64,000 nt of DNA, taken from contig CAVVXN010000002.1 of the NCBI GenBank assembly GCA_963752285.1, positions 32,001-96,000 of the forward strand, given 5' to 3'. Source of the DNA: an uncultured Planctomycetota bacterium. GTDB taxonomy: Bacteria > Planctomycetota > PLA2 > JAEUHO01. The number at the start of each line of letters is the position of its first letter. The first letter of the stretch is position 1. The notes under the pieces are model-generated. The model made no database searches. It worked only from the letters and a program-made list of their open reading frames with translations, and was not told where the DNA came from. This document shows, in pieces, positions 5,250-63,200 of this stretch. A program made the translations under genes and the position numbers.

Positions 5250-6133
5250 TCGATCCCCGAGGACCGAACTCGACCACGCGTTGGCGCCGCTGGGACGTCC
5301 TGGGTATCTCCGCGTTGGTCCTGCTTGGCGCCATGGCCACCTATCCAGCCTGGCAGGACATCTTCCTGATCGCCACGCGGGACGAGGAGCAGAGCCACGT
5401 CCTGCTCGTCCCCGTCGTCGCGGCGTGGCTCGTATGGGTCCGCCGGGCGAGATTGCGCCGCTGCCCCCGCGACTTCCGGTACGTCGGACCCGCACTCATC
5501 GCACTCGGTTGGGCCGCGACCTCGATCGGGGACCTTCGGCTCATCCAGGCTCTCTGGCACGCCGGTGCCGTGCTCGTCTTCGTCGGGTGCGTGGTCTCCT
5601 TCACGGGCGCCCGGCTGGTCGCCCGGCTCCTCCCCGCCTTCGTGGTACTCGTGTTCTTGGTGCCCGTGCCGGGCATGTTGCGGCAGCAGGTCGCGCTGCC
5701 GCTCCAGACGGCGACCGCCGACGTGACGCAGCGCATCCTGGACACGTTCGGGGTGGAAGCGGCGCGGGCCGGGAACGCGCTCGCGGTCAACGGGCACGAG
5801 ATCCGGATCGCGGACGCGTGCAACGGACTTCGCATGGTCTCGGCGCTCTTCCTCGTGTCCTTCGCCTTCGCCTACGGGCTCCCCCTTCGGGAACCCGTGC
5901 GTTGGCTGATCCTCTTCCTGAGTCCGCTCTCCGCGATCCTCTGCAACGTGGCCCGGTTGATCCCCACGATTCTCGCCTACGCCTACGTGTCGGACGCCGC
6001 GGGGGAGCGCGTCCACGACATCGGGGGATGGGTCATGCTGCCCGTGGCCTTCCTGCTGCTGCTCGGGATCGTCCGATCGCTGCGCTGGGCCCTCCTGCCC
6101 GTCTACCGTTACACCCTCGCCTACGGGCGATAG
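5246..6133 (+). CDS. Exosortase (EpsH family transpeptidase)
   Basis: Multi-pass membrane protein with catalytic-type motifs IADACNGLR (Cys), NVAR (Arg) and VHD (His). GTG start overlaps the upstream TGA. Followed by an EpsI-like gene. Confidence 0.92.
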   Translation: MIDPRGPNSTTRWRRWDVLGISALVLLGAMATYPAWQDIFLIATRDEEQSHVLLVPVVAAWLVWVRRARLRRCPRDFRYVGPALIALGWAATSIGDLRLIQALWHAGAVLVFVGCVVSFTGARLVARLLPAFVVLVFLVPVPGMLRQQVALPLQTATADVTQRILDTFGVEAARAGNALAVNGHEIRIADACNGLRMVSALFLVSFAFAYGLPLREPVRWLILFLSPLSAILCNVARLIPTILAYAYVSDAAGERVHDIGGWVMLPVAFLLLLGIVRSLRWALLPVYRYTLAYGR

Positions 6134-29666: not shown

Positions 29667-30464
29667 ATGCCGATCCGACAGCTCGGTCGTCTCGCGTTCC
29701 TGACCCTGGTCGGGCTGGGCGGGCTCCTCTTCTCTGCGCCCCAGGGGCGTGCCGACCCCATCAACGACCGTACGCCGCAGGTGACGCTCGGAGCGTCATG
29801 GGACGGCCCGAGCGCGAACCTCTCGTCGATCTTCAGCCAGGCGAGCGGCCTCGGCGCCATGGGGGCCGACGCGTTCGACCCCGCGAACGACCAGAGCCCC
29901 TACGCCCTCTGGACGCCCGGCGCCGGTCAGTCCGCGACCACCATCGTGCTGGAGATCGCCGGCTACAGCCCGCTCAACCAGCTCGGGATCTACAGCGCCG
30001 CGAACAACCTGAACTCCTACGGCCTCTTCGCGGGCAGCGCGTCGTCGGGAGACGACCTCACCCTGACCTTCGTGGGCGGGCACCTCTGGGTGGACGGCCT
30101 CGACCAGGGCCTCTTCGACATCTCCGACGGCTTCGGCTTCTACCTCCACTCGGGGAACGGCAAGACCTACTACACCGAGGACAGCCGAAACGGGGGCGTC
30201 GCCCAGGCGCTCGTCTTCCAGGGCCAGGGCGGCGGCCAGCAGATCCAGGTCACCTCCGGCGGCCAGACCATCGCGCTCGGCACGAACGACTGGGTGATCG
30301 GGTTCGAGGACCTGGACTACGGAAGCTCCGACAAGGACTTCAACGACTTCGTCTTCGTGGCGCAGAACATCACGCCGGTGCCGGAGCCGTCCTCGCTCGC
30401 CTTCCTGGCGCTGGCGATCGGCGGGGGCGCCTTCTGGCGGAAGCGCTGGAGCAAGAAGGCCTGA
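29667..30464 (+). CDS. PEP-CTERM protein with DUF4114-like domain
   Basis: Signal peptide, GFEDL...SDKDFNDFVF motif, C-terminal VPEPSSLAFLALAIGGGAFWRKR. Confidence 0.9.
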   Translation: MPIRQLGRLAFLTLVGLGGLLFSAPQGRADPINDRTPQVTLGASWDGPSANLSSIFSQASGLGAMGADAFDPANDQSPYALWTPGAGQSATTIVLEIAGYSPLNQLGIYSAANNLNSYGLFAGSASSGDDLTLTFVGGHLWVDGLDQGLFDISDGFGFYLHSGNGKTYYTEDSRNGGVAQALVFQGQGGGQQIQVTSGGQTIALGTNDWVIGFEDLDYGSSDKDFNDFVFVAQNITPVPEPSSLAFLALAIGGGAFWRKRWSKKA

Positions 30465-49593: not shown

Positions 49594-49904
49594 ACGGGAT
49601 TGGCCCCGGGCGGGGGCGGTGTCGGTCGGCGGGGCGCAGAGGTGCCGCCCCGGGCAACCATGGTCCGCGCGGCCGCCCGGCTCGCCCCCTCGCCCGGGCC
49701 GCGCGCCAGAGGTCGCGGGCCGAGGGTCGCGATGTGGTCTGGGTCCCCGGATCGGCGCTTCGAGCCGTCGCGTCGCGTCGAGAGCCAGTCTTGCCGGGTG
49801 AAGAGCAGCGCTCCTGCAGGCTGCGGCGGGCTTGACGTGGGAGGTCGCCCCGGAACCCGCCGGCCGTCGGGCGTCATGTCGTTCCCGGATCCCCGGGTTC
49901 CCAG

Positions 49905-49931
49905 CAAAAGAGAGCACGGCGCGGCCCATCC
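49905..49931 (+). promoter_or_regulatory. Putative sigma-28-like promoter CAAA-N15-GCCCATCC
   Basis: Same motif and spacing, upstream of the PEP-CTERM gene at 50021. Confidence 0.58.
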
Positions 49932-50020
49932 AAATCATGGCCGTGATGTTCGTACGCGCCCCTTTCGCCCCGTGGGCGGTCCGTTGGGCGCGGGAACACG
50001 CCGGCCTGGGAGGGAGTTCG

Positions 50021-50689
50021 ATGGGAGGGATGCGGCTCGCGATCTGCGCCGGGCTTTCCGGCCTGTCCCTGCTCGTTCTTGCCGCGGGAGCGCGGGCGGA
50101 CTCCTTGGCGGAGTCTGGTGACGCAGGTTCCTCCCTCGCGACCTCCGAAGCCGTGGGCGCAGGGATCGACTCCATTACGGGATCGCTTTCGGTCCTCGGC
50201 GACGTGGACATGTACGAGCTGAACCTGGACGCCGGGTTCTTCTTCGCCTCGACGGTCGGCGGCTCGTCCGTGGACACCCAGCTCTACCTCTTCGACAGCG
50301 CCGGCTACGGAGTCGTGGGCAACGACGATTACGACCCCTCGAACTCGGGCGGGCTGCAGTCCCGCATCGAGGCCACGCTCACGGCGGGCACCTACCACCT
50401 CGCCGTATGCGCGTACGGCTACGACCCGTTCAGCTCGGGCGGTGCGATCTTCCCCGACTCGGCCACGACCGGATCCGACCCGTTCTGGGCGCCGACCGGC
50501 GCCGGCGGGGGCGCGCCGCTTTCCTACTGGGCGGACGCGAACGGGGACCACAGCACCACGCAGACCGGTGCGTACACCATCTCCCTGACATCGACTCCGT
50601 CGCCGGTTCCCGAGCCCGGGACGATGGCGTTGCTGGCGGTGGGCCTCGCCGGTTTGGGCCTTCGTGGGTGCCGAGCCCGCGTCGCCTGA
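50021..50689 (+). CDS. PEP-CTERM protein with DVUA0089-like domain
   Basis: ESGDAG, DVDMY and DTQLYLFD...NDD motifs, VPEPGTMALLAVGLAGLG tail. Confidence 0.88.
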   Translation: MGGMRLAICAGLSGLSLLVLAAGARADSLAESGDAGSSLATSEAVGAGIDSITGSLSVLGDVDMYELNLDAGFFFASTVGGSSVDTQLYLFDSAGYGVVGNDDYDPSNSGGLQSRIEATLTAGTYHLAVCAYGYDPFSSGGAIFPDSATTGSDPFWAPTGAGGGAPLSYWADANGDHSTTQTGAYTISLTSTPSPVPEPGTMALLAVGLAGLGLRGCRARVA

Positions 50690-51027
50690 GGTTCCTTGCT
50701 TCGGGGGCTGGCACCCCGGACAGCATTCGACACGAGCTCCGCGAGGTTCTCTCGCGGAGCTCGCGTCATTTTGGGAACGGGATCCGCGGCGGCCGGCCGA
50801 CCGTCGGGTGCCGACCCCGGGCCCCTCGGATTCGTCACCACCTTCCCGGCACGTTGGCAGCCGACCGCGCGCTTCCCGATCTACTCTCGGGCTCGGTGAG
50901 GACGGTGGGCCGCTCAGCCGACCGCGGTGTGCCCCTTTGAGCCAGGATCCTGCTGTGGTCCCCGGCACGCCGCGGCGTTGACAGGGGCGAGTTCCTCCTC
51001 GACCCTGGCGAGGGGGACGGAGGTCTC

Positions 51028-51459
51028 ATGGCCAGGACGACAAGCATCACCGAGGCGATCGTGAGTCTGATCCAGACCGTGGAGGACGTGGTCCGGCGGT
51101 TCGGCGACAGGCTCGAGCGAGGCGACGGATCCGCGGAGGCCGCCGGAGAGGCTTCGATGCCTCGCCGCGCCCGGCTTCGGGCTCCGCGCGTCCCGGCAAC
51201 GGAGGGCGATGCGCCGGCGTCCGGCGCCCGGGCGTCCCGCCCCCCGAAGGCCCAGGCGAAGTCGAAGAAGCTCCGCTCGGCTCTCAAGAGTCACTGGGCG
51301 AACATGACGCCCGAGGAGCGCGCCGCCCGCATCGCGAAGATGCAGGCCGGCCGCACGAAGGGGAAGCCGCGGGCGGCCGCCGCCAAGCGCCGAAAGGCGA
51401 GCCCGAGGCGCACGCGACCTGCCGCGGCGCCGACGGGCCAGGAGATCGGGAACGGTTGA
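51028..51459 (+). CDS. Small Lys/Arg/Ala-rich hypothetical protein
   Basis: 143-aa ORF with a GGAGG RBS and a basic C-terminal half. Confidence 0.65.
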   Translation: MARTTSITEAIVSLIQTVEDVVRRFGDRLERGDGSAEAAGEASMPRRARLRAPRVPATEGDAPASGARASRPPKAQAKSKKLRSALKSHWANMTPEERAARIAKMQAGRTKGKPRAAAAKRRKASPRRTRPAAAPTGQEIGNG

Positions 51460-51846
51460 CCGGGCGTTTCCGGCGGCGGCGCGGAGGCCTCCGAACGGCC
51501 CGCACCACCACGTGCGCACTCGCTTTCGCGTGATCCGTCTCGAGCCGCGTTGAGGGTGTGCCTGGGGCGGCCGGAGGGGGGCCCGGGCGGGGCGCCGTCA
51601 CTCGGCGTGCGCCCCGCCTCGGGTCCCTCGGCCGTCGGTTCGGCCGCCACACGCGAGCCGCCATGCGTCGTTCAGCGAACGGTCGCTCTGCGTCGGCCAA
51701 GTACCCGCCTCCGGCTCGAAACGGTGGCCCGTCCTGGACTCGACCGGAGGGCCGCCAAGACCGGCGAAACGGGTCGGGAGTCGATGTTCGCGCATGGCCG
51801 CGTGCGCGGCCGGTTGCCGTCCGCGTGTCACACGCGGTCGAGCGTG

Positions 51847-52835
51847 CTACGCGAGCTTGCGCCGGCGGCGGCGCCGCACCGCGAGCCCCCCCAGCGCCAG
51901 GCCGGTGAGGGCGAGGGTGGCAGGCTCGGGGACGGGGACGGGAGATCCCAGGAGCGCGTACCCGGTGAGACCGCCGGCAGCGAGGGCGGTGTAGCCCGTG
52001 CCGGTGGGAGCGTTGCTGACCTGGCCGTAGTAGTCATAGCCCCACGCGAGGATGCTGCCGTCGGCGGCCAGGGCGTACCCGTTGTAGTAGCCGCCGGCGA
52101 TGGCGGTGTAGCCCGTGCCGGTGGGAGCGTTGCTGACCTGGCCGTAGTAGTCATAGCCCCACGCGACGATGCTGCCGTCGGCGGCCAGGGCGTACCCGGT
52201 GTAGTAGCCGCCGGCGATGGCGGTGTAGCCCGTGCCGGTGGGAGCGTTGCTGACCGCGCCGTAGTAGTCATAGCCCCACGCGACGATGCTGCCGTCGGCG
52301 GCCAGGGCGTACCCGTTGTAGTCGCCGCCGGCGATGGCGGTGTAGCCCGTGCCGGTGGGAGCGTTGCTGACCGCGCCGTAGAAGTCATAGCCCCACGCGA
52401 GGATGCTGCCGTCGGCGGCCAGGGCGTACCCGTTGTAGCCGCCGCCGGCGATGGCGGTGTAGCCCGTGCCGGTGGGAGCGTTGCTGACCTGGCCGTAGTC
52501 GTCATAGCCCCACGCGAGGATGCTGCCGTCGGCGGCCAGGGCGTACCCGTCGTAGCCGCCGCCGGCGATGGCGGTGTAGCCCGTGCCGGTGGGAGCGTTG
52601 CTGACCTGGCCGTAGCCGTCATAGCCCCACGCGAGGATGCTGCCGTCGGCGGCCAGGGCGTACCCGGTGTAGAGCCGCCGGCGATGGCGGTGTAGCCCGT
52701 GCCGGTGGGAGCGTTGCTGACCTGGCCTTGGCCGTCATAGCCCCACGCCGTGATGCCATCCGCCCGCGCCGGTGCCGCTAGACCGACGGCCCCCAGGACT
52801 ACCACGAGCAACCCGATTCCCTTGGTCAGACGCAT
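51847..52835 (-). CDS. PEP-CTERM protein made of seven 39-aa RCC1-like repeats, copy 1 (1-bp deletion near 52672)
   Basis: Signal peptide, 7 x AWGYDxxGxVSNAPTGTGYTAIAGGxYxGYALAADGSI(L/V) and VPVPEPATLALTGLALGGLAVRRRRR tail. Confidence 0.88.
51975..52750 (-). repeat. 117-bp tandem repeat array, 7 units
   Basis: WGY anchors at 52036, 52153, 52270, 52387, 52504, 52621 and 52737. Confidence 0.95.
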
Positions 52836-52974
52836 GTCCATCCTCCAGCTTCCGAAGCGGCGTCGGCCCTCCACCCTTCCGAGGTGCGGTGCCCTCCGCC
52901 TCCAAGAATCCAATGGCGGTTTCCGGCGCAAAGCGGACACGAATGGAGGGTCCTTGGTCCCAGCGCGGCGCGCT

Positions 52975-53216
52975 CGACCCCTCGCCAATCGGCGCCGCGG
53001 CCGGCCGACCGCCGCGCGGGCCGCGGCAGGCGCCGCGCCCTGGACCTCCACCAGGCTGCCTGGCTGGGCGCGTCGGCGTCAGTCGCCAGCGGAGCATCGA
53101 GGTCGAGCTGGGGAAGCCGCGAGCCTCGCTGCACCTGGTCCTGCGCACACTGGTGGCGCCCGGCATCGAGTTGTGGACCGAGGAGCCCCCGCCGAGTGCG
53201 TCGCACGGATCCGTAC
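52975..53216 (+). pseudogene. HipB-like HTH antitoxin remnant (truncated duplicate)
   Basis: VGVSRQRSIEVELGKPRASLHLVLRTL, cut by the deletion junction. Confidence 0.6.
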
Positions 53217-53446
53217 CCGTGACCCGACTCGAGATCGGAGATCGTGAGGCTGTCGGCGCTCCGCCAGTCCTTCGCATTCGTGAGCCCGCTCGTGGCGTGG
53301 AAGACCGGAGCGCCGCCGTCCTGGTAGGCCGCGCCGACCACGTTGTCGCCCGTGAAGTCGAAGGTGAGGGCGATCCCATCCGCGCGGGCCGAGCCGGCAC
53401 AGGCGATCCACAGCGCGGCACCGATCAAGACACTTACAAGCCTCAT
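53217..53446 (-). pseudogene. 5' fragment of the PEP-CTERM gene found intact at 56644-57435
   Basis: Near-identical MRLVSVLIG...TISDLE, with its upstream motif at 53486-53512, truncated at the junction. Confidence 0.85.
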
Positions 53447-53904
53447 TCCGACTTACTCGGGCGCGACCCTGCCGCCTCTTGAACTTAATGGGCGACATCG
53501 GCGATCGCTTTGGGGACCGTTGCGAGCGACGCGTCCCGGCCCCCTCGGACTCTGCCACCACGCCCCCGCTTCTCGCGCCGGGGCCCGGTTGGCACCCAAC
53601 TCGGCGGCCAAGCGTCTACCTCGGGCCACCTTTGTCGCTCTCGGTGGATGAGCGCTGTCGATCGCACCTCGCCTCGGCCTCCGCGCCGCTCTCCTCCGCC
53701 GTCTCAGTGCGCCACGGCGAGTCGCTGTCCACCCCCAGGGCCGCCAGGGACTGCCCGTGCCCGTTGCCGGGGCCCCCGGGTCGCCCGCGTGGGGTCGCAT
53801 GCGCCCGCGCGCGAATTCCCCTCCCCTCGCCAGGTCCAGGCCGAAGCTGCGCGAGACCGATCCCCCAGGTCCCGGCCGATCGCGACGGCCGCAGGAACCG
53901 ACCG

Positions 53905-53994
53905 GCGGAGGTGTACCGCCTCCTTCATGAGCCCGACCGCGCCGTGGCCGCGGCGAAGCGGGCCTTCGCCGGCGAGGTCCCCCCGCGGGGGGCC
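53905..53994 (+). repeat. ~90-bp copy of the TPR region of the Ser/Thr kinase (62489-62578)
   Basis: AEVYRLLHEPDRAVAAAKRAxAGEVPPRG is encoded at both sites. Confidence 0.85.
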
Positions 53995-54409
53995 CGCGAC
54001 TTCGCTACCGCGCGATCTGGATCGACCGCCCCGCCTGAGCGCCGGCGGAACCCGTACCGCGACACCGCCGCGGGGGTCGGTCGAGCGGGGCGCGTTCGGG
54101 TCGAGGTGGGCGAGGCCGGCGCGGGCGAGGTAGTCGGCGAGCGGCTCGAGGCCCATCTCGGCGCGCCGTCCGTCGAATCCGGGCCCGCCCCCCGCGCGAC
54201 AGCGCCCCGCGGCACGCGTCGGCCTACCCCCGTACGGTGCCGAACCCATTCAGAACAGCGAGGAGCCTTTCCTGTCTTGTGCCTCGCGTGCTGCGTCGGG
54301 CGGCGTGGCGTTCGTGACCGCGTCGGTGCCCGGAGCGGTCCCTCCGTGTGGGTGTCGCGGGATGCGCCGTGGGCCGGGGCCCGACGCCGGCCTCGCCGGC
54401 GCCCGCCGG

Positions 54410-54737
54410 GGTCTACCGGCCGCGGCACCCGGAGCGCACGCCCCTCTACCGGGTGATCGAGGCGCGCTTCGAGGAGTACCGGCGCGTGTATGCCGACCGC
54501 TTCGAGCCCGAGGCCGGGCCCTGGCGAACGGAGGTGGAGGAGGCGGTGCACGCGTTCCTGGACTGAGGGCGGCTCCACGGGGGTTTCGCCCGGATCCGGT
54601 GCCCGAGGTGCGGAGCCGAGCACCTGCTGGCCTTCTCGTGCCGGACGCGCAACCTCTGTCCGTCGTGCCAGTCCAAGCGGTCGGCCCTCTTCGGGGAGTG
54701 GCTGGTGGATGCGGTGCTGCTCGACGTGCCTCACCGC
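54410..54737 (+). pseudogene. IS91-family (HUH/Y2) transposase zinc-binding domain fragment
   Basis: YRPRHPERTPLY...FLD*G...GFARIRCPRCGAEHLLAFSCRTRNLCPSCQSKR...VPHR. TGA replaces the expected Cys, and the fragment is truncated exactly at the duplication start. Confidence 0.85.
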
Positions 54738-55023
54738 CCTGGGGCGGCCGGAGGGGGGCCCGGGCGGGGCGCCGTCACTCGGCGTGCGCCCCGCCTCGGG
54801 TCCCTCGGCCGTCGGTTCGGCCGCCACACGCGAGCCGCCATGCGTCGTTCAGCGAACGGTCGCTCTGCGTCGGCCAAGTACCCGCCTCCGGCTCGAAACG
54901 GTGGCCCGTCCTGGACTCGACCGAAGGGCCGCCAAGACCGGCAAAACGGGTCGGGAGTCGATGTTCGCGCATGGCCGCGTGCGCGGCCGGTTGCCGTCCG
55001 CGTGTCACACGCGGTCGAGCGTG

Positions 55024-56014
55024 CTACGCGAGCTTGCGCCGGCGGCGGCGCCGCACCGCGAGCCCCCCCAGCGCCAGGCCGGTGAGGGCGAGGGTGGCAG
55101 GCTCGGGGACGGGGACGGGAGAACCCAGGAGCGCGTACCCGGTGAAACCGCCGGCAGCGAGGGCGGTGTAGCCCGTGCCGGTGGGAGCGTTGCTGACCTG
55201 GCCGTAGCCGTCATAGCCCCACGCGAGGATGCTGCCGTCGGCGGCCAGGGCGTACCCGTTGTAGCAGCCGCCGGCGATGGCGGTGTAGCCCGTGCCGGTG
55301 GGAGCGTTGCTGACCTGGCCGTAGTAGTCATAGCCCCACGCGACGATGCTGCCGTCGGCGGCCAGGGCGTACCCGTTGTAGTAGCCGCCGGCGATGGCGG
55401 TGTAGCCCGTGCCGGTGGGAGCGTTGCTGACCTCGCCGTAGAAGTCATAGCCCCACGCGACGATGCTGCCGTCGGCGGCCAGGGCGTACCCGTTGTAGTC
55501 GCCGCCGGCGATGGCGGTGTAGCCCGTGCCGGTGGGAGCGTTGCTGACCTGGCCGTAGCCGTCATAGCCCCACGCGAGGATGCTGCCGTCGGCGGCCAGG
55601 GCGTACCCGTTGTAGCCGCCGCCGGCGAGGGCGGTGTAGCCCGTGCCGGTGGGAGCGTTGCTGACCTGGCCGTAGCGTCAGTAGCCCCACGCGAGGATGC
55701 TGCCGTCGGCGGCCAGGGCGTACCCGGTGTAGTTGCCGCCGGCGATGGCGGTGTAGCCCGTGCCGGTGGGAGCGTTGCTGACCTGGCCTTGGCCGTCATA
55801 GCCCCACGCGAGGATGCTGCCGTCGGCGGCCAGGGCGTACCCGTTGTAGGTAGCCGCCGGCGATGGCGGTGTAGCCCGTGCCGGTGGGAGCGTTGCTGAC
55901 CTCGCCGTAGGAGTCATAGCCCCACGCCGTGATGCCATCCGCCCGCGCCGGTGCCGCTAGACCGACGGCCCCCAGGACTACCACGAGCAACCCGATTCCC
56001 TTGGTCAGACGCAT
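55024..56014 (-). CDS. PEP-CTERM protein made of seven 39-aa RCC1-like repeats, copy 2 (indels near 55850 and 55680)
   Basis: Same signal peptide and tail as copy 1, with a different order of variable residues. Confidence 0.88.
55152..55929 (-). repeat. 117-bp tandem repeat array, 7 units
   Basis: WGY anchors at 55213, 55330, 55447, 55564, 55681, 55798 and 55916. Confidence 0.95.
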
Positions 56015-56149
56015 GTCCATCCTCCAGCTTCCGAAGCGGCGTCGGCCCTCCACCCTTCCGAGGTGCGGTGCCCTCCGCCTCCAAGAATCCAATGGCGGTT
56101 TCCGGCGCAAAGCGGACACGAATGGAGGGTCCTTGGTCCCAGCGCGGCG

Positions 56150-56560
56150 CGCTCGACCCCTCGCCAATCGGCGCCGCGGCCGGCCGACCGCCGCGCGGGC
56201 CGCGGCAGGCGCCGCGCCCTGGACCTCCACCAGGCTGCCTGGCTGGGCGCGTCGGCGTCAGTCGCCAGCGGAGCATCGAGGTCGAGCTGGGGAAGCCGCG
56301 AGCCTCGCTGCACCTGGTCCTGCGCACACTGGAGGCGCTCGGCATCGAGTTGTGGACCGAGGAGCCCCCGCCGAGTGCGTCGCACGGATCCGTACCGGGG
56401 GCCTCCGTCGATCTCGGTGGCGTCGTGGACGCGCACACGACACCCCGCGGGGGGCGGCCGTGATCTCCAAGGAACTCGTCGCCGTCCTGGGGGGGACGGA
56501 GGTCGGTCGCCTGACATGCGACCGCAACGGTCGGTCGCGGTACGCCGCCCACGGTTGCCG
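56150..56560 (+). pseudogene. Decayed hipBA-like toxin-antitoxin pair (HipB HTH plus HipA N-terminal stub)
   Basis: RRRALDLHQAA/LAGRVGVSRQ...GKPRASLHLVLRTLEALGI ends at 56463. An overlapping GTG at 56460 gives ISKELVAVLGGTEVGRLTCDRNGR, then homology is lost. Confidence 0.68.
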
Positions 56561-56643
56561 GAGGCGGGCAAAAGCGCGGACACGATCACCCATCCGTGGA
56601 GATGGGGTGTCGGTCGTCCCTGCGGCCGTAGCGCCGAATTCGC

Positions 56644-57435
56644 CTAGACGGCCTGCGCGCGGCGCCTCCGCGTGAGAAGGCCGAGGCAGCCCAGCCCCGT
56701 GACCAGCAGCAACAGCGTGGCGGGCTCCGGAACGGGGGTGGTGACCGTGAGCCGGATCCAGAGCATCTGGTCCTGTGTGGTCGTGAAATTGTCACCTGCC
56801 CACAGCCACTGGGCGGAATCGCTGATCGAGCCGAGGCCCGTGCCCCCGTTCCAGGGAGCGCTGTTCTTCCCGCCGTAGCTCGTCACGTCGCTCCAGGAGA
56901 TGTCGTTGAAGTCCCATCCAGTCGGCAGGCTGTTCGAGTCGAGCCAGCCGGTGGTGGGCGTCAACGTGACCCCCTCGTCGCCATCAATGCCGCCGCTCCC
57001 GTCGATGTCGTACGAGAAGACGTTGCTGTAGGCCCAGTGGCCGACGTCCCCGCTCTCGTATTCCTTTGTGACGACCGAGAGCCCGCCGCCCGAGACCTCG
57101 GCGAGGAACGCCGCCGGGTTGCCGGAGCCTGCGGCACCCTCGTCCGGATCGCTGTACGGGTCCCCCGACGTGAGGCCGTTTCGGACGAGGAAGATGAACT
57201 GGTACTCGTGACCCCACTCGAGATCGGAGATCGTGAGGCTGTCGGCGCTCCGCCAGTCCTTCGCATTCGTGAGCCCGCTCGTGGCGTGGAAGACCGGAGC
57301 GCCGCCGTCCTGGTAAGCCGCGCCGACCACGTTGTCGCCCGTGAAGTCGAAGGTGAGGGCGATCCCATCCGCGCGGGCCGAGCCGGCGCAGGCGATCCAC
57401 AGCGCGGCACCGATCAAGACACTTACAAGCCTCAT
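56644..57435 (-). CDS. PEP-CTERM protein
   Basis: Signal peptide ending ARA-D, TGDN, NPAAFLAE, ISDSAQWLW and VPEPATLLLLVTGLGCLGLLTRRRR. Confidence 0.92.
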   Translation of the reverse strand: MRLVSVLIGAALWIACAGSARADGIALTFDFTGDNVVGAAYQDGGAPVFHATSGLTNAKDWRSADSLTISDLEWGHEYQFIFLVRNGLTSGDPYSDPDEGAAGSGNPAAFLAEVSGGGLSVVTKEYESGDVGHWAYSNVFSYDIDGSGGIDGDEGVTLTPTTGWLDSNSLPTGWDFNDISWSDVTSYGGKNSAPWNGGTGLGSISDSAQWLWAGDNFTTTQDQMLWIRLTVTTPVPEPATLLLLVTGLGCLGLLTRRRRAQAV

Positions 57436-57474
57436 TCCGACCTCCTCGGGCGCGACCCTGCCGCCTCTTGAACT

Positions 57475-57501
57475 TAATGGGCGACATCGGCGATCGCTTT
57501 G
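57475..57501 (-). promoter_or_regulatory. Putative sigma-28-like promoter CAAA-N15-GCCCATTA
   Basis: Same motif and spacing, upstream of the ATG at 57435. Confidence 0.6.
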
Positions 57502-57837
57502 GGGACCGTTGCGAGCGACGCGTCCCGGCCCCCTCGGACTCTGCCACCACGCCCCCGCTTCTCGCGCCGGGGCCCGGTTGGCACCCAACTCGGCGGCCAA
57601 GCGTCTACCTCGGGCCACCTTTGTCGCTCTCGGTGGATGAGCGCTGTCGATCGCACCTCGCCTGGGCCTCCGCGCCGCTCTCCTCCGCCGTCTCAGTGCG
57701 CCACGGCGAGTCGCTGCCCACCCCCAGGGCCGCCAGGGACTGCCCGTGCCCGTTGCCGGGGCCCCCGGGTCGCCCGCGTGGGGTCGCATGCGCCCGCGCG
57801 CGAATTCCCCTCCCCTCGCCAGGTCCAGGCCGAAGAA

Positions 57838-57929
57838 CGACTCCCGACCCGTTTTTTCGGCCTACGTGCCGTGGCCGTCCTGGCGAGGACCGAAGGGCCG
57901 CCATGCTCGAGAATACGGGTCGGGAGTCG
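57838..57929. repeat. REP/REPIN-like palindromic element: perfect 15-bp inverted repeat around a 62-bp spacer
   Basis: CGACTCCCGACCCGT (57838-57852) and ACGGGTCGGGAGTCG (57915-57929). Related half copies at 51724-51786 and 54901-54963. Confidence 0.75.
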
Positions 57930-57987
57930 ATGGCTGCGTTCCGGGACAGCGCTCATGCTGCGCCCTCGAAACTCGGGGGCACGAAAC

Positions 57988-58035
57988 GAGCCCGGGCGGG
58001 GCGCGACCCTTCGGCCGGCGCCCCGCCCGGCTCGG
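57988..58035 (-). terminator. GC-rich hairpin downstream of the delta-60 repeat gene
   Basis: On the minus strand CGAGCCGGGCGGGGCGC...GCGCCCCGCCCGGGCTCG followed by TTT. Confidence 0.5.
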
Positions 58036-58044
58036 GATGGTCGG

Positions 58045-59412
58045 CTACTCGGCCGTCAGGCGGGCGACGAACCAGACCCAGTCGGTCGTCGTGTCGTCCC
58101 GCGCGGCGGTGTGGGACAGGCCGCCTACGTACGTCTCTCCCGCGGCGTCCACGAGGCAGCCGAAGGCCTGGTTGTAGGGGAGGACCTGGAGGGGGCCGGC
58201 GACGCCGTCCTGGCCGAACGTGTCGTCGAGCTCGCCCGTGTCGGTGAGCCTCACGGCGTAGGCGTCCGCGATCGTGCCGCCCGCGGCGTAGTTCCACGCG
58301 TAGCCCGCGACCACGATCTCGCCCGTGGGCGCGAGCGCGAGCGAAGCGTAGGCGTCGAAGCGATCGTAGCCGTCGATCGCGACCGCCACCTCGCCGTCGG
58401 TCCCGAAGGTGTCGTCCGCGGCCAACGTGCCCGAATCGACCGTGAACCGTCGGACGAGCATGTTGCCGCCGTTCGTCTGGGTGAGGTCCGAGACCAGGAT
58501 CCGGTCGTCGTCGTCCACCGCCACCGCGCCGGGCACCAGGCCGGCCCGCGTCAGCTCGTCGAGGGGGGATCCGTCCGCCGAGAGGAGGATCAGGCGCGAG
58601 AGCTGCGTCGTCTGCGTTCCGCCGGTGTGGGCGGCCACGACGATGCTCCCGTCCGCGAGCACGGCCAGCGCGTTTCGGTTGGCGCGGTCGTCGTTGGCCG
58701 CTCCGCCGGTCTTCTGGTTGTTGGGGTCGTAGACCCAGTAGCCGTTGGTGGCGAAGGACGTGTCCAGGGCGCCGTCGCTATCGAGGCGGGCCACGAAGAT
58801 CTCGGGGTAGCTCGCGTAGTTCTTCCCCGGCGGAGGCGCGCCCGCCTGCCCGGCGGCGAGGATCTTCCCGTCGGAGAGCACGAGGAGGGAGTTGACCCGC
58901 GCGTTGAGGGATCCCGGCACGTCGAGGTGCGCGACGCCGTCCGTCCCGAAGGACGTGTCGAGGCTGCCCGCGGCCGTGAGCCGGGCCACCGCGCCGACCG
59001 ACTTCGTCGTGACCGTCGGGTGCCTCTTCTTCCCCGTGACGGTCGTGACGTTCGCGCACCCGCCCGCGAGGATCCCGTCGCCCGACGTGACCGCCAGCGC
59101 CTGGAGATTCGCCTGGTCGGCCGAGGTGAAGACGTTCGCGACGCCGCCGCTTCCGAAGCCGAGGTCCGCCGCGCCGTTCGCGTCGAAGCGCCGAAGCTCC
59201 CAGGGGCCGTTGATCGGGGACCCGCCGCCGACCACGCCGCCGTCCGACTGCCCGACCATCTGGACCATCGGGGACAGCCACGCGAGGTCCCCCGTCATCG
59301 CGAAGCCCCCGATCCCGTAGTCCTGGTCGAGGTCACCCGCCGCCGCCCAGGCCGTCCCCGCCGCCAGCGCGAGAAAGAGGATCGCCCGGCTCCATCCCCC
59401 TCGTCCCCGCAT
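58045..59412 (-). CDS. Secreted delta-60 repeat (beta-propeller) protein
   Basis: Signal peptide and repeated (A/V)RLxxxGxLDTSFGTDG / SDGKILAAG units. Alternative start at 59463. Confidence 0.88.
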   Translation of the reverse strand: MRGRGGWSRAILFLALAAGTAWAAAGDLDQDYGIGGFAMTGDLAWLSPMVQMVGQSDGGVVGGGSPINGPWELRRFDANGAADLGFGSGGVANVFTSADQANLQALAVTSGDGILAGGCANVTTVTGKKRHPTVTTKSVGAVARLTAAGSLDTSFGTDGVAHLDVPGSLNARVNSLLVLSDGKILAAGQAGAPPPGKNYASYPEIFVARLDSDGALDTSFATNGYWVYDPNNQKTGGAANDDRANRNALAVLADGSIVVAAHTGGTQTTQLSRLILLSADGSPLDELTRAGLVPGAVAVDDDDRILVSDLTQTNGGNMLVRRFTVDSGTLAADDTFGTDGEVAVAIDGYDRFDAYASLALAPTGEIVVAGYAWNYAAGGTIADAYAVRLTDTGELDDTFGQDGVAGPLQVLPYNQAFGCLVDAAGETYVGGLSHTAARDDTTTDWVWFVARLTAE

Positions 59413-60248: not shown

Positions 60249-63200
60249 CCCCCGACGAACGCGTGGACGAGATCTTCGCCGCCTGGCGCGCGGCGTGGGA
60301 CCGCGGGGAACGGATCGAGCCGCGGCGGGTCGTGGCCGAGCACCCGGACGTGGCCGAGGCGCTCGCGCTCCGCTTCGAGGTGCTCTCCCTCCTCGATCGC
60401 GTCGTCGGGGAAGCCCTCGCGGGGTCCCCGCTCGAGGGGGCCTCGCCCGGGGGCGCGCCCCCGGCCGAGGGTCGGGTCCTCGGCGACTACCGCCTCCTCC
60501 GCGAGGTCGGCCGCGGCGGCATGGGCGTCGTGTACGAGGCGGAGCAGGTGTCCATGCGACGCCGCGTCGCCTTGAAGGTGCTCTACCCCACGGTCACGCA
60601 GAGCCCGAGGGCCATCGAGCGCTTCCGCCGGGAGGCGCAGGCGACGGGCCGCCTTCACCACACGAACATCGTCTCCGTGCACGGGATCGGCAGCGAGGCC
60701 GGCACGTGGTTCTACGCCATGGACCTCGTGGAGGGACGGCCCCTCCACCGCGTGATCGAGGACATGCGCCGCCTGGAGGGCCTCCCCGCGGACGCGCCCG
60801 AGCGCCAGGAGTCGTCGTCCGCCGGCGGGGCCTTCTCGACCTCGGCGGGGCGGCCCGAGGAGTACGCCCACGTCGCGCGCGCGTTCTGGGGCGTCGCCGA
60901 CGCCCTCGCGACCGCGCACGCCGCGGGCGTCGTCCATCGCGATCTGAAGCCCGCGAACCTCCTCCTCGACGGCACCGGCACGCTCAAGATCGTGGACTTC
61001 GGGCTGGCGCGCATCCGCGGCGAGGAGGGCGCGCTCACCGTGACCGGCGACGTCGTCGGGACGCCGGCCTACATGAGCCCGGAGCAGGCGCGGGGTCGCG
61101 AGGTGGACGCGCGTTCCGACGTCTACGCGCTCGGCGCGACGCTCTACGAGGTCCTGGCCCGCCGGCCGCCCTTCGCGGGGGACGACGTGGCGGTCGTCCT
61201 TCGGCAGGTCCTCACCCGCGATCCGCCCCCGCTTCGCCGGGTCCAGCGCCGGATCCCCCGCGACCTCGAGACGATCGTGATGCGCGCGATCGAGAAGGAG
61301 CCCGAGCGCCGCTACCCGTCGGCGAAGGACCTGGCGCACGACCTGCTCCTCTTCGCCGAGGGCGGAGCGATCAAGGCCCGCCCCATCGGGCCGCTCGCCC
61401 GGGTCTGGCGCCGGCTCCGGCGGCACAAGGGGAGGACGCTCCTCGGTGCCGCCGGTCTGGCCGCGCTCGTCGTGGCGCTCCTCTTCGCACGCCGCGCGTA
61501 CGAGGAGTCCCGATCGCGGGAGCGTCTCGAGTACGACCTCCTCGTGCGCCAGGGCGTGGCCGCGGCCTGGGGCGCCGAGCTCGACGACCAGGCCGCCACG
61601 GAGGCGCGCGACCTCTTCCGCCGGGCGCTCCCGCTCGCTCCGGAGCGGTACGACGCCGACGTGGCCCTCGCGTTCCTCGAACGGGGCGCCTCGGCGCGCC
61701 TCGCGCGCGCGAAGGCCGCCCGGGGGAAGGGCCTCTCCCCGGCCGCCGCCGGCCTCCTCGAGGCCTACGTCCATCGCCGCGAGGGAGAGGAGGCCCTGGC
61801 GAAGCCCCTCGAGACGCGCTGGCGCGGCGTCGCGGGCGGCGAGGCCTTCGGACTGCTCCTCGACGCCGAGGAACGCGCCGCGCGCGGCGACTACGACGGC
61901 GCGCTCGAGGGCTACGCGGCGCTGCTGGAGCGTGCGCCGGACCCGGCCCTCCTGGCGCTCGAGGCGCATCGGCGCCGGGCCGGGCTCGCGCTCGAGGTCG
62001 GGCGATTCGAGATGGCGCTCGAGGACCTCCATGCGCTCCGGCCCGTGGGCCACCCGAGCCCGCTCCTCCTCCTCGCCGAGGCGTGGTGCTGGCGCGGGCT
62101 CGGCCGTACGGACACCGCCGAGGAGACCTTCGCGCAGGCGCTCGACCTCGCGAAGGACGACGTGAACGGCCTCTCGGCACTCGGCCAGCGCTCGATCGTG
62201 CTCGGGGCGCACGCGTGGCTCGACCGGATCGCGAAGGCGGGAGAGGAACGGTATCCCGACCACCTCGCCCTCCTCCAGGTCCGCGCGGAGTCCTCGTCCG
62301 ACGCCGGCGACTTCGCGGGCGCCGCCGCGCTCTACGAGCGCCTGGTGGGCGCCCATCCCGACGACACCGCGCTGCGGAGTCACTGGGCGAGACTCCTCTG
62401 CCGCGTGGGTCGAGGGGACGAGGCGGCGAAGGTGGTGCACGACGTCGAGGCCCGCGAACCGACCGACGCGGCGACCTTCGTGAACCTCGCGGAGGTCTAC
62501 CGCCTCCTTCACGAACCCGACCGCGCCGTGGCCGCGGCGAAGCGGGCCGTCGCTGGCGAGGTCCCCCCGCGGGGGGCCGCCGAGCAGCTCGTCCGGGCGC
62601 TGCTCAGCGCGGGACAGAAGGACGAGGCCGAGAAGGCGGCCCTCGAGGGGATGGCCCGCGCGCCGCGGGACCCCGAGGTCTTCGTGGCCGCCGCCCAGGC
62701 CGCGGCAGAGACGGGGAACCCCGAGAACGCCGTCTCGCGGTACCGGCGCGCGCTCGCGCTCGACCCGGGGCGTCCGGACGCGGCCTACCTGCTCGGAAAG
62801 CTCCTCGCCCGCGAGAAGAAGCTCGCCGAGGCCGAGACGTACCTTCGCCAGGCGGTCGAAGCGCGGCCCGACATCGCGAGCGCGCACCAGAGCCTCGCCT
62901 TCGTGCTCCGCGACGAGAACCGGCTGAAGGAGTCGATCGACGAGTTCCGCCGTGCGGTGGCGATCGACCCCAAGAACGGCCTCGCGCTCTGCGAGATCAG
63001 CAACGAACAGAGGCAGCTCGGCGATCTCGACGGCGCCGTGCGGTCGCTTCGCGAGGCGATCGCGGTCACCCCGGACGACGTGGTCCTCCACATCAACCTC
63101 GCCGGCCTCCTGAACGACGCCGAGCACTGCGACGAGGCGGCGGCCGAGCTCGAGTCCGTGGCGAGCCGCGCCCAGGGTTTCCCCGTGTTCTTCTGGAATC

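Follow-up and report, generated by a model that had tools for sequence, protein, structure and literature searches.

Twin genes and their repeat arrays

The window analysed here is the whole stretch of 64,000 nucleotides, taken from one contig of an uncultured Planctomycetota bacterium whose assembly amounts to 4.64 Mb in 5 contigs (73% G+C, 89.35% complete). It carries two closely similar genes on the minus strand. Each is composed of a leader, an array of seven 39-codon units and a PEP-CTERM tail. The two genes and their arrays, as delimited by Tandem Repeats Finder (TRF), are as follows.

51847..52835, minus strand: copy 1 gene, with leader, seven 39-codon blades and PEP-CTERM tail (from translations, Pfam and TIGR02595)
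51973..52748, minus strand: copy 1 array of 117-bp units (TRF: period 117, 6.6 copies, 96% matches)
55024..56014, minus strand: copy 2 gene, with the same architecture as copy 1
55150..55927, minus strand: copy 2 array of 117-bp units (TRF: period 117, 6.6 copies, 94% matches)

Anchoring on a WGYD motif gives seven units per gene in both copies. Unit 1 is 116 nt long in copy 1 and 118 nt long in copy 2, and the six units that follow measure 117 nt each in either gene. A preliminary description, made from the sequence alone, had reported two seven-unit arrays with near-invariant DNA save for a few codons and had proposed an alignment of the 14 units. TRF and that alignment bear this out: variation is limited to 12 of the 117 nucleotide positions of a unit, all of them in codons 6, 7, 9, 22, 26, 28 and 39. 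Across the 14 units every change at these seven codons is nonsynonymous, and some of the codons differ at two bases. The sole synonymous difference among the units, GCC/GCT at codon 23, is found in both copies in unit 7, the last of the array, at the transition from repeat to tail. Five of the variable codons specify loop positions in each blade, within the motifs D-x-(Y/Q)-G-x, after strand b, and G-x-Y-x, in the inter-blade loop. The residues seen at these positions are Gly, Asp, Tyr, Phe, Ser, Asn, Cys, Thr, Gln, Ala and Glu. The other two, codons 22 (I/L) and 39 (L/V), show conservative changes within strands.

The same codons account for the divergence between the two arrays. All 23 substitutions that separate them are nonsynonymous and lie within these 7 of 39 codons, or 18% of a unit. 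This corresponds to 23 substitutions in 703 nt of array (~3.3%) versus 14 in 1588 nt of the remaining duplicated sequence (0.9%). A parsimony count on codon states requires at least 16 nonsynonymous steps and 0 synonymous ones. Outside the arrays, the near-identity of flanks, leader and tail that had been noted before is confirmed. The signal-peptide region does not differ between the copies; at the N-terminus of each gene the leader, read by eye, is MRLTKGIGLLVVVLGAVGLAAPARA, followed by DG. The tail shows 2 differences, one of which, L/F, affects unit 7 at its loop position, and the C-terminal sequence of both genes is SPVPVPEPATLALTGLALGGLAVRRRRRRKLA.

The GQGQ unit comes first in copy 1 and second in copy 2, and a comparison of these two units shows 0 differences, which confirms the displacement stated in the preliminary description. 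In addition, the 5' half of unit 4 of copy 2 is that of unit 2 of copy 1, out of register, and the 3' halves of units 3 and 4 of copy 2 are those of units 3 and 4 of copy 1, in register. The displaced identical unit and the identical out-of-register half-units suggest an exchange of units. The scaffold positions differ at 1 site in ~670 nt, versus 14 in 1588 nt of flanks, a contrast that also weakly suggests exchange.

As assembled, neither gene encodes a full-length product. Copy 1 has a 1-nt deletion at codon 26 of unit 1 (~52673). Copy 2 has a 1-nt insertion at codons 26/27 of unit 1 (~55849-55851) and, in unit 3, a local +1/-1 pair that creates an in-frame TGA (55680-55678); a tblastn match likewise reports 1 TGA. 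Three of the four indels fall in variable codons. The repeat pattern given in the preliminary description therefore holds; the genes are not open in the assembly, which that description had marked only by a question mark and brackets.

Related genes were sought among 8000 scored candidates, which gave 304 proteins at E<=0.001. The named homologues are mostly from metagenome-assembled genomes of Planctomycetota, and the best protein match is 68% identical. The propeller gene has no match in the same-genus genome and one, at 53%, among 24 same-family genomes; species-representative genomes reach at most 50% and Joint Genome Institute (JGI) metagenome contigs at most 55% identity. TRF applied to 71 related loci (27 + 44) found arrays of period 100-135 with 65-88% matches only, so that the uniformity of the arrays is specific to the source lineage. 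Tandem paralogues of the family recur in other lineages. Two or more arrays of 117-bp period stand side by side in the related loci L061 (411-1025 and 1268-2016), L064 (3007-3791 and 4434-5194) and L034 (several arrays), which come from metagenome and MAG contigs.

One group of relatives is informative on the loops. This sister lineage, ~65% identical to the twin genes, comprises 19 clustered sequences from different contigs, one of them labelled Planctomycetaceae. Leader, scaffold and PEP-CTERM tail are almost perfectly common to all 19. Among the 14 sequences that include the first loop, 6 variants of it occur, and the last loop before the tail varies too. Because unique flanking sequence anchors both loops, this variation is not due to array collapse. 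Loop positions matching those of the twin genes vary between natural alleles, which supports the interpretation given in the preliminary description. The small unit numbers of the sister lineage (2-3), however, could easily have arisen in the assembly of short reads.

Predicted fold, tail and neighbourhood

The 274-residue in-frame part of copy 1 was used for domain and structure searches. It matches Pfam RCC1_2 (PF13540) over 5 stretches, with 93.2 bits against a cut-off of 22 (E=5.6e-27). Among solved structures, BLIP-II is a sequence match (E=1.9e-31). An AlphaFold model of this part, computed from an alignment of 36 sequences, contains six blades (mean predicted local distance difference test score, pLDDT, 93.2; predicted template modelling score, pTM, 0.84), and DSSP assigns three strands to each 39-residue unit. 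Search for structural similarities to the model using Foldseek retrieved BLIP-II (3qhy_B; template modelling score, TM, 0.77; root-mean-square deviation 1.8 A over 245 columns; 37% identity), with UVR8, HERC, RPGR, CR4 and RCC1 at lower ranks. Sequence and structure searches thus both confirm the RCC1/BLIP-II-type fold assigned at first sight. The model covers six blades; by sequence, each copy has seven WGYD units in all, and a final GYALL strand that could pair with the N-terminal partial blade.

In the model, codons 6, 7 and 9 directly follow strand b. Codon 26 lies in the 3-residue loop leading from strand c to the following blade, whose strand a opens with the residue specified by codon 28. 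Since strand b ends, in an antiparallel blade, on the face where strand a starts, the five loop positions would be on one face. From this strand topology and by analogy with BLIP-II, we infer that they cluster on the apical face of the propeller. The preliminary description had proposed that variation affects loop residues and had suggested a test of whether the variable residues gather on one face; the model agrees by its strand topology, for six blades. BLIP-II grips TEM-1 via apical beta-turns and inter-blade loops, as described in a preprint (bioRxiv 10.1101/2024.08.26.609822). In the sequence alignment, the segments of BLIP-II that form these turns and loops pair with the variable segments of the twin genes. 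Trp53, Trp152 and Trp269 are hot spots of BLIP-II; they serve here as background and carry none of the argument.

The C-terminal tail, with its PEP motif, hydrophobic span and Arg cluster, is recognized by PF07589 (PEP-CTERM; 23.3 bits against a cut-off of 20.7, in the same 274-residue part) and by TIGR02595 (28 bits against 16). In the NCBIfam search no named PEP-CTERM subfamily matched over its cut-off, the matches being restricted to the tail. The PEP-CTERM assignment of the preliminary description is upheld by these two families and by the presence, in the window, of an exosortase gene, the presumed sorting enzyme for the tails:

5330..6076 (C2:37330-38076), plus strand: exosortase (EpsH family) gene, PF09721 over cut-off (E=1.8e-49)

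A crude regular-expression search counted 19 PEP-CTERM-like tails in the genome, 15 of them on the same contig and 8 in the window. With 8 of 19 tails and the exosortase in the window, the twin-gene locus belongs to a PEP-CTERM gene cluster, and the window, counting the exosortase gene, is a PEP-CTERM cargo island. Five further tails lie at 30381, 37134, 38932, 43957 and 50609; one of the five belongs to a PPC-domain / DVUA0089-family protein (49832-50689). The PEP-CTERM tail probably directs the propeller to the exosortase system, for display at the surface of the cell or in its matrix. A search of Rfam over 50500-58500 (E<=0.1) returned 0 matches, promoter and terminator scans of 51500-53500 gave 0 and 0, and no RNA run containing the region is listed among the sequencing runs searched.

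The twin genes are part of a larger segmental duplication, the elements of which are listed below.

51562..53846, no strand: first copy of the duplication, consisting of block A (51562-53217) and block B (53213-53846)
54738..57835, no strand: second copy of the duplication, consisting of A' (54738-56396), an 806-bp stretch (56397-57201) and B' (57202-57835)
56644..57441, minus strand: gene X, co-duplicated upstream of the propeller gene, encoding a secreted PEP-CTERM protein of 265 aa with no other recognised domain; Pfam PEP-CTERM matches it, and NCBIfam does so in the tail only
53446 down to ~53213, minus strand: remnant of gene X beside copy 1, ~80 codons
54414..54737, plus strand: fragment of a transposase of the IS91 family (Zn_Tnp_IS91, E=1.4e-11), with a stop inside it, abutting the second duplicate without a gap

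By blastn, A and A' are 98.0% identical over 1660 columns, B and B' 98.7% over 634. The first duplicate is without the 806 bp found in the second, and most of the upstream PEP-CTERM gene is consequently gone, ~80 codons being left. The duplicates are separated by a unique 891-bp spacer that ends in the truncated IS91-type transposase fragment; a 79% match to this fragment is found at C5:301271-301694. A rolling-circle insertion sequence (IS) may have helped to make the segmental duplication. Genome-wide, blastn and tblastn find the propeller gene in these two copies only.

Several short repeats accompany the duplication. A 90-bp stretch of the spacer (53905-53994) recurs 8.6 kb apart at 62489-62578 with 94% identity. 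A 63-bp element lies 3' of each propeller gene (51724-51786 and 54901-54963), and a third copy of it, 79% identical, is upstream of the intact gene X (57871-57932). The fold energy of the 151-nt 3' flank is not unusual (z = -0.8). Upstream stretches 53021-53193 and 56200-56372 recur 550 kb off on the same contig (C2:605047-605223, 81% identity). A plus-strand helix-turn-helix protein with a frame change, proposed by eye upstream of each gene, was rejected as Pfam does not support it (best match HTH_IclR, E=0.089).

Proposed loop diversification and its alternatives

The explanation we favour, with a probability of about 60%, is that the product of the twin genes is a binder displayed by way of the exosortase, and that selection diversifies its contact face while repeat units are exchanged. 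The genes are tandem paralogues. According to this explanation, each would specify a seven-bladed BLIP-II-type propeller that is secreted and built of three-stranded blades. A fixed scaffold and five variable loop positions per blade would together create a Tyr-rich binding surface on the apical face, with a different set of contacts in each blade and in each paralogue. Recent amplification of the arrays, exchange of units within and between them, or both, would have made the scaffold DNA uniform, and the loop differences would be kept by diversifying selection for binding. The ligand would be an external and variable molecule, either a glycan or a foreign protein. Finally, the genes would be intact in the cell, their three breaks being consensus errors of the assembly.

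Several points weigh against this explanation. No reads of the source organism cross the arrays, so the genes might be dead, with genuine indels. The arrangement of the loops on one face is taken from strand topology and likeness to BLIP-II rather than from model coordinates. The concentration of changes in loop codons is a matter of substitution counts from one genome, not of a codon-model test. Homogenisation after the duplication is weakly evidenced (1 difference in ~670 nt against 14 in 1588), and errors of the assembly may account for some of the differences in the flanks. Close relatives are lacking, the best protein match being 68% identical, so that unit order cannot be compared between strains of the lineage. 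The alleles of the sister lineage come mostly from short contigs in which arrays may have collapsed. Binding, expression and surface localisation of the propeller are predictions from sequence.

The first alternative is fresh amplification alone. One blade would have been multiplied to seven shortly before the duplication, and what is seen would be ordinary early differentiation, without exchange or selection for diversity. Parts of Pereira and Lupas 2022 (PMC9218822) support the premise: propellers are described there as continuously re-amplified from single blades, and a WRAP domain without synonymous substitutions is reported. The far less uniform arrays of the relatives, with 65-88% matches in the 71 loci, fit a lineage-specific amplification, and few synonymous changes are expected since the duplication, so that a count of zero is not decisive. 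However, the 23 substitutions between the copies, and no fewer than 16 nonsynonymous steps, are all confined to 7 codons, on one face; the scaffold has none. Moreover, several codons differ at two bases, an identical unit occupies different array positions, and matching positions vary between the sister-lineage alleles. These observations make differentiation without exchange or selection an unlikely account, though it is the strongest of the alternatives.

Next in order of probability, and improbable in our view, is that both genes are true pseudogenes with genuine indels and decaying arrays. In its favour, neither yields a full-length product as assembled, three of the four indels hit variable codons, and frameshifting deletions do disrupt some highly repetitive propellers, according to passages of Pereira and Lupas (PMC9218822). 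However, the assembly breaks genes that must be intact. In the rpoB/rpoC region (C5:538918-546677), rpoB is in 2 frames that abut at profile position 641. In the same assembly, rpoC is in 9 pieces with 8 frame changes by start coordinates and has two TGA inside the last piece. The indel density is ~1.2 per kb in rpoB/rpoC, and the 3 to 4 indels in the 2 kb of the twin genes agree with this figure. Because essential single-copy genes such as rpoB and rpoC are also broken, the indel calls of this assembly are untrustworthy at such a density. Furthermore, the location of indels in variable codons, which looks at first like a targeted process, is also predicted by error models: if errors depend on local sequence or on reads misplaced between units, those specific to one unit can arise only where the units differ, the units being identical everywhere else. 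Decay should also have added substitutions to the scaffold, and none is seen. The breaks in both twin genes are thus probably consensus errors of an indel-rich long-read assembly. More generally, frameshifts anywhere in this genome are suspect and should not be taken for biology.

As this assembly is error-prone, the loop variation, or the second copy itself, might have been created during assembly or polishing. Polishing is difficult in tandem and segmental repeats, and no reads are available across the arrays. Three soil-metagenome runs of one study contain 5-9% of the sampled words and cover scattered pieces of the region with short, low-depth contigs; the arrays are not spanned. One 147-nt short-read contig from a soil metagenome does map to the copy 2 array, with 5 differences, and it differs at no fewer than five positions from every unit. 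In addition, random errors would not strike the same 7 codons in 14 units, and context-dependent errors would act alike in units with identical flanks. The copies are also told apart by 14 substitutions in the flanks, by the 806 bp present in one of them and by the unique 891-bp spacer with its IS91 fragment, which argues for a real tandem duplication and not for two merged haplotypes. We therefore consider an artefact quite improbable.

Targeted mutagenesis of the loop codons by a diversity-generating retroelement (DGR) or another dedicated mutator has hardly any probability left: the variable codons are indeed NNC/NNG, as expected from AAC/AAG template codons, and the indels cluster at them, but PF00078 (RVT_1) has 0 matches in the 89.35%-complete genome (a control search was positive in 3 of 14 named genomes), blastn of the genome finds no third unit copy that could be a template, 14 adenines, an AAC codon among them, are invariant across all 14 units, 12 of 14 units have TAC as codon 7 and 9 of 14 have CAG as codon 9, so that the states are not random, and the NNC pattern is explained by bias towards G+C at third codon positions. 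The preliminary description had raised this idea with doubts of its own, and the doubts were justified. The lack of a reverse transcriptase, which it had stated for the window, extends to the 89.35%-complete genome, and the further copies or A-rich template that it recommended searching for did not appear, the two arrays being all that blastn returned.

Comparison with known systems

The tails of the twin genes resemble those of known PEP-CTERM substrates (TIGR02595, for instance the floc protein PepA), which have in common a C-terminal PEP motif, a hydrophobic span and an Arg cluster. The twin genes match them in the tail only, and sit in a PEP-CTERM gene cluster with an exosortase. In the literature searched, no paper combines the terms 'PEP-CTERM' and 'RCC1'. 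The portions of Kaur et al. 2020 (PMC7159879) consulted contain nothing specific to a hypervariable-loop propeller design. The combination of a PEP-CTERM tail with an RCC1/BLIP-II-type propeller appears to be undescribed; the hypervariable-loop propeller design itself is known.

BLIP-II of Streptomyces exfoliatus (PDB 1JTD, 3QHY) is a secreted protein with seven blades of ~40 residues and three strands each, an architecture also predicted for the twin genes. Its binding surface, made of apical turns and inter-blade loops, aligns with the variable positions of the twin genes. However, the blades of BLIP-II have diverged, its target is known and it lacks a PEP-CTERM tail, whereas the blades of the twin genes are 94-96% identical in DNA and are followed by an exosortase tail. 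The likeness concerns the fold, and binding of a beta-lactamase by the twin genes is not implied. BLIP-II holds its target with picomolar to femtomolar affinity.

The arrays also belong with the highly repetitive propellers surveyed by Pereira and Lupas 2022 (PMC9218822), in which, in the parts of the study at hand, RCC1/BLIP-II is the third-largest group, with 10%. Such propellers share near-identical DNA and an absence of synonymous differences, are mostly bacterial and include frameshifted examples. The twin genes show this near-identity at the nucleotide level, with 96% and 94% TRF matches and 12 of 117 positions variable. The survey, in these parts, takes the arrays as fresh amplifications, whereas the two paralogous arrays described here show divergence restricted to the loops and a displaced unit. 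Its main text and eight text-searchable supplementary files make no mention of Planctomycetes or PEP-CTERM; RCC1 and BLIP are not found in these eight supplements either, three further files being pictures that cannot be searched.

The closest parallel in evolutionary behaviour is the HNWD family of Podospora anserina (het-d, het-e, het-r). In these genes, as set out in portions of two studies (Paoletti et al. 2007, PMC1805685; Chevanne et al. 2010, PMC2873952), WD40 repeats are swapped inside a gene as well as between paralogues, and diversifying selection acts on four surface codons per repeat. Uniform propeller repeats with a few hypervariable codons each are common to both systems, these codons lying on an interaction surface in HNWD and on a putative one in the twin genes. 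The HNWD proteins, as portrayed there, are eukaryotic, cytoplasmic and of the NOD-like receptor (NLR) type, with WD40 blades, a variable number of repeats and repeat-induced point mutation (RIP) as a source of mutations. The twin genes, in contrast, are bacterial and their product is predicted to be exported; its blades are of the BLIP-II type, the number of units is fixed at seven and there are only two loci, with exchange between units inferred from one genome. Membership in the HNWD family was considered and rejected, as Pfam gives RCC1-type repeats and PEP-CTERM only and no NACHT/WD40 NLR architecture. The resemblance is one of evolutionary behaviour and not of family.

If the genes are intact, they provide a compact bacterial case of a constant scaffold with selectable loops on an exported protein. 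With two paralogous arrays and the sister-lineage alleles, the turnover of loop codons and units becomes measurable on a surface protein, and the poorly understood cargo of the PEP-CTERM/exosortase system is tied to a concrete binding fold. As a tentative extension, about which we are more doubtful than confident, Planctomycetota and perhaps other PEP-CTERM bacteria might carry BLIP-II-type propellers on their surface as a repertoire comparable to antibodies, the seven Tyr-rich blade sites being continually re-sorted as 117-bp units are swapped inside a gene and between paralogues or alleles. Each strain would then have its own specificities for variable targets, such as glycans, enzymes of competitors or phage proteins, and the system would be a bacterial, extracellular counterpart of the fungal HNWD receptors.

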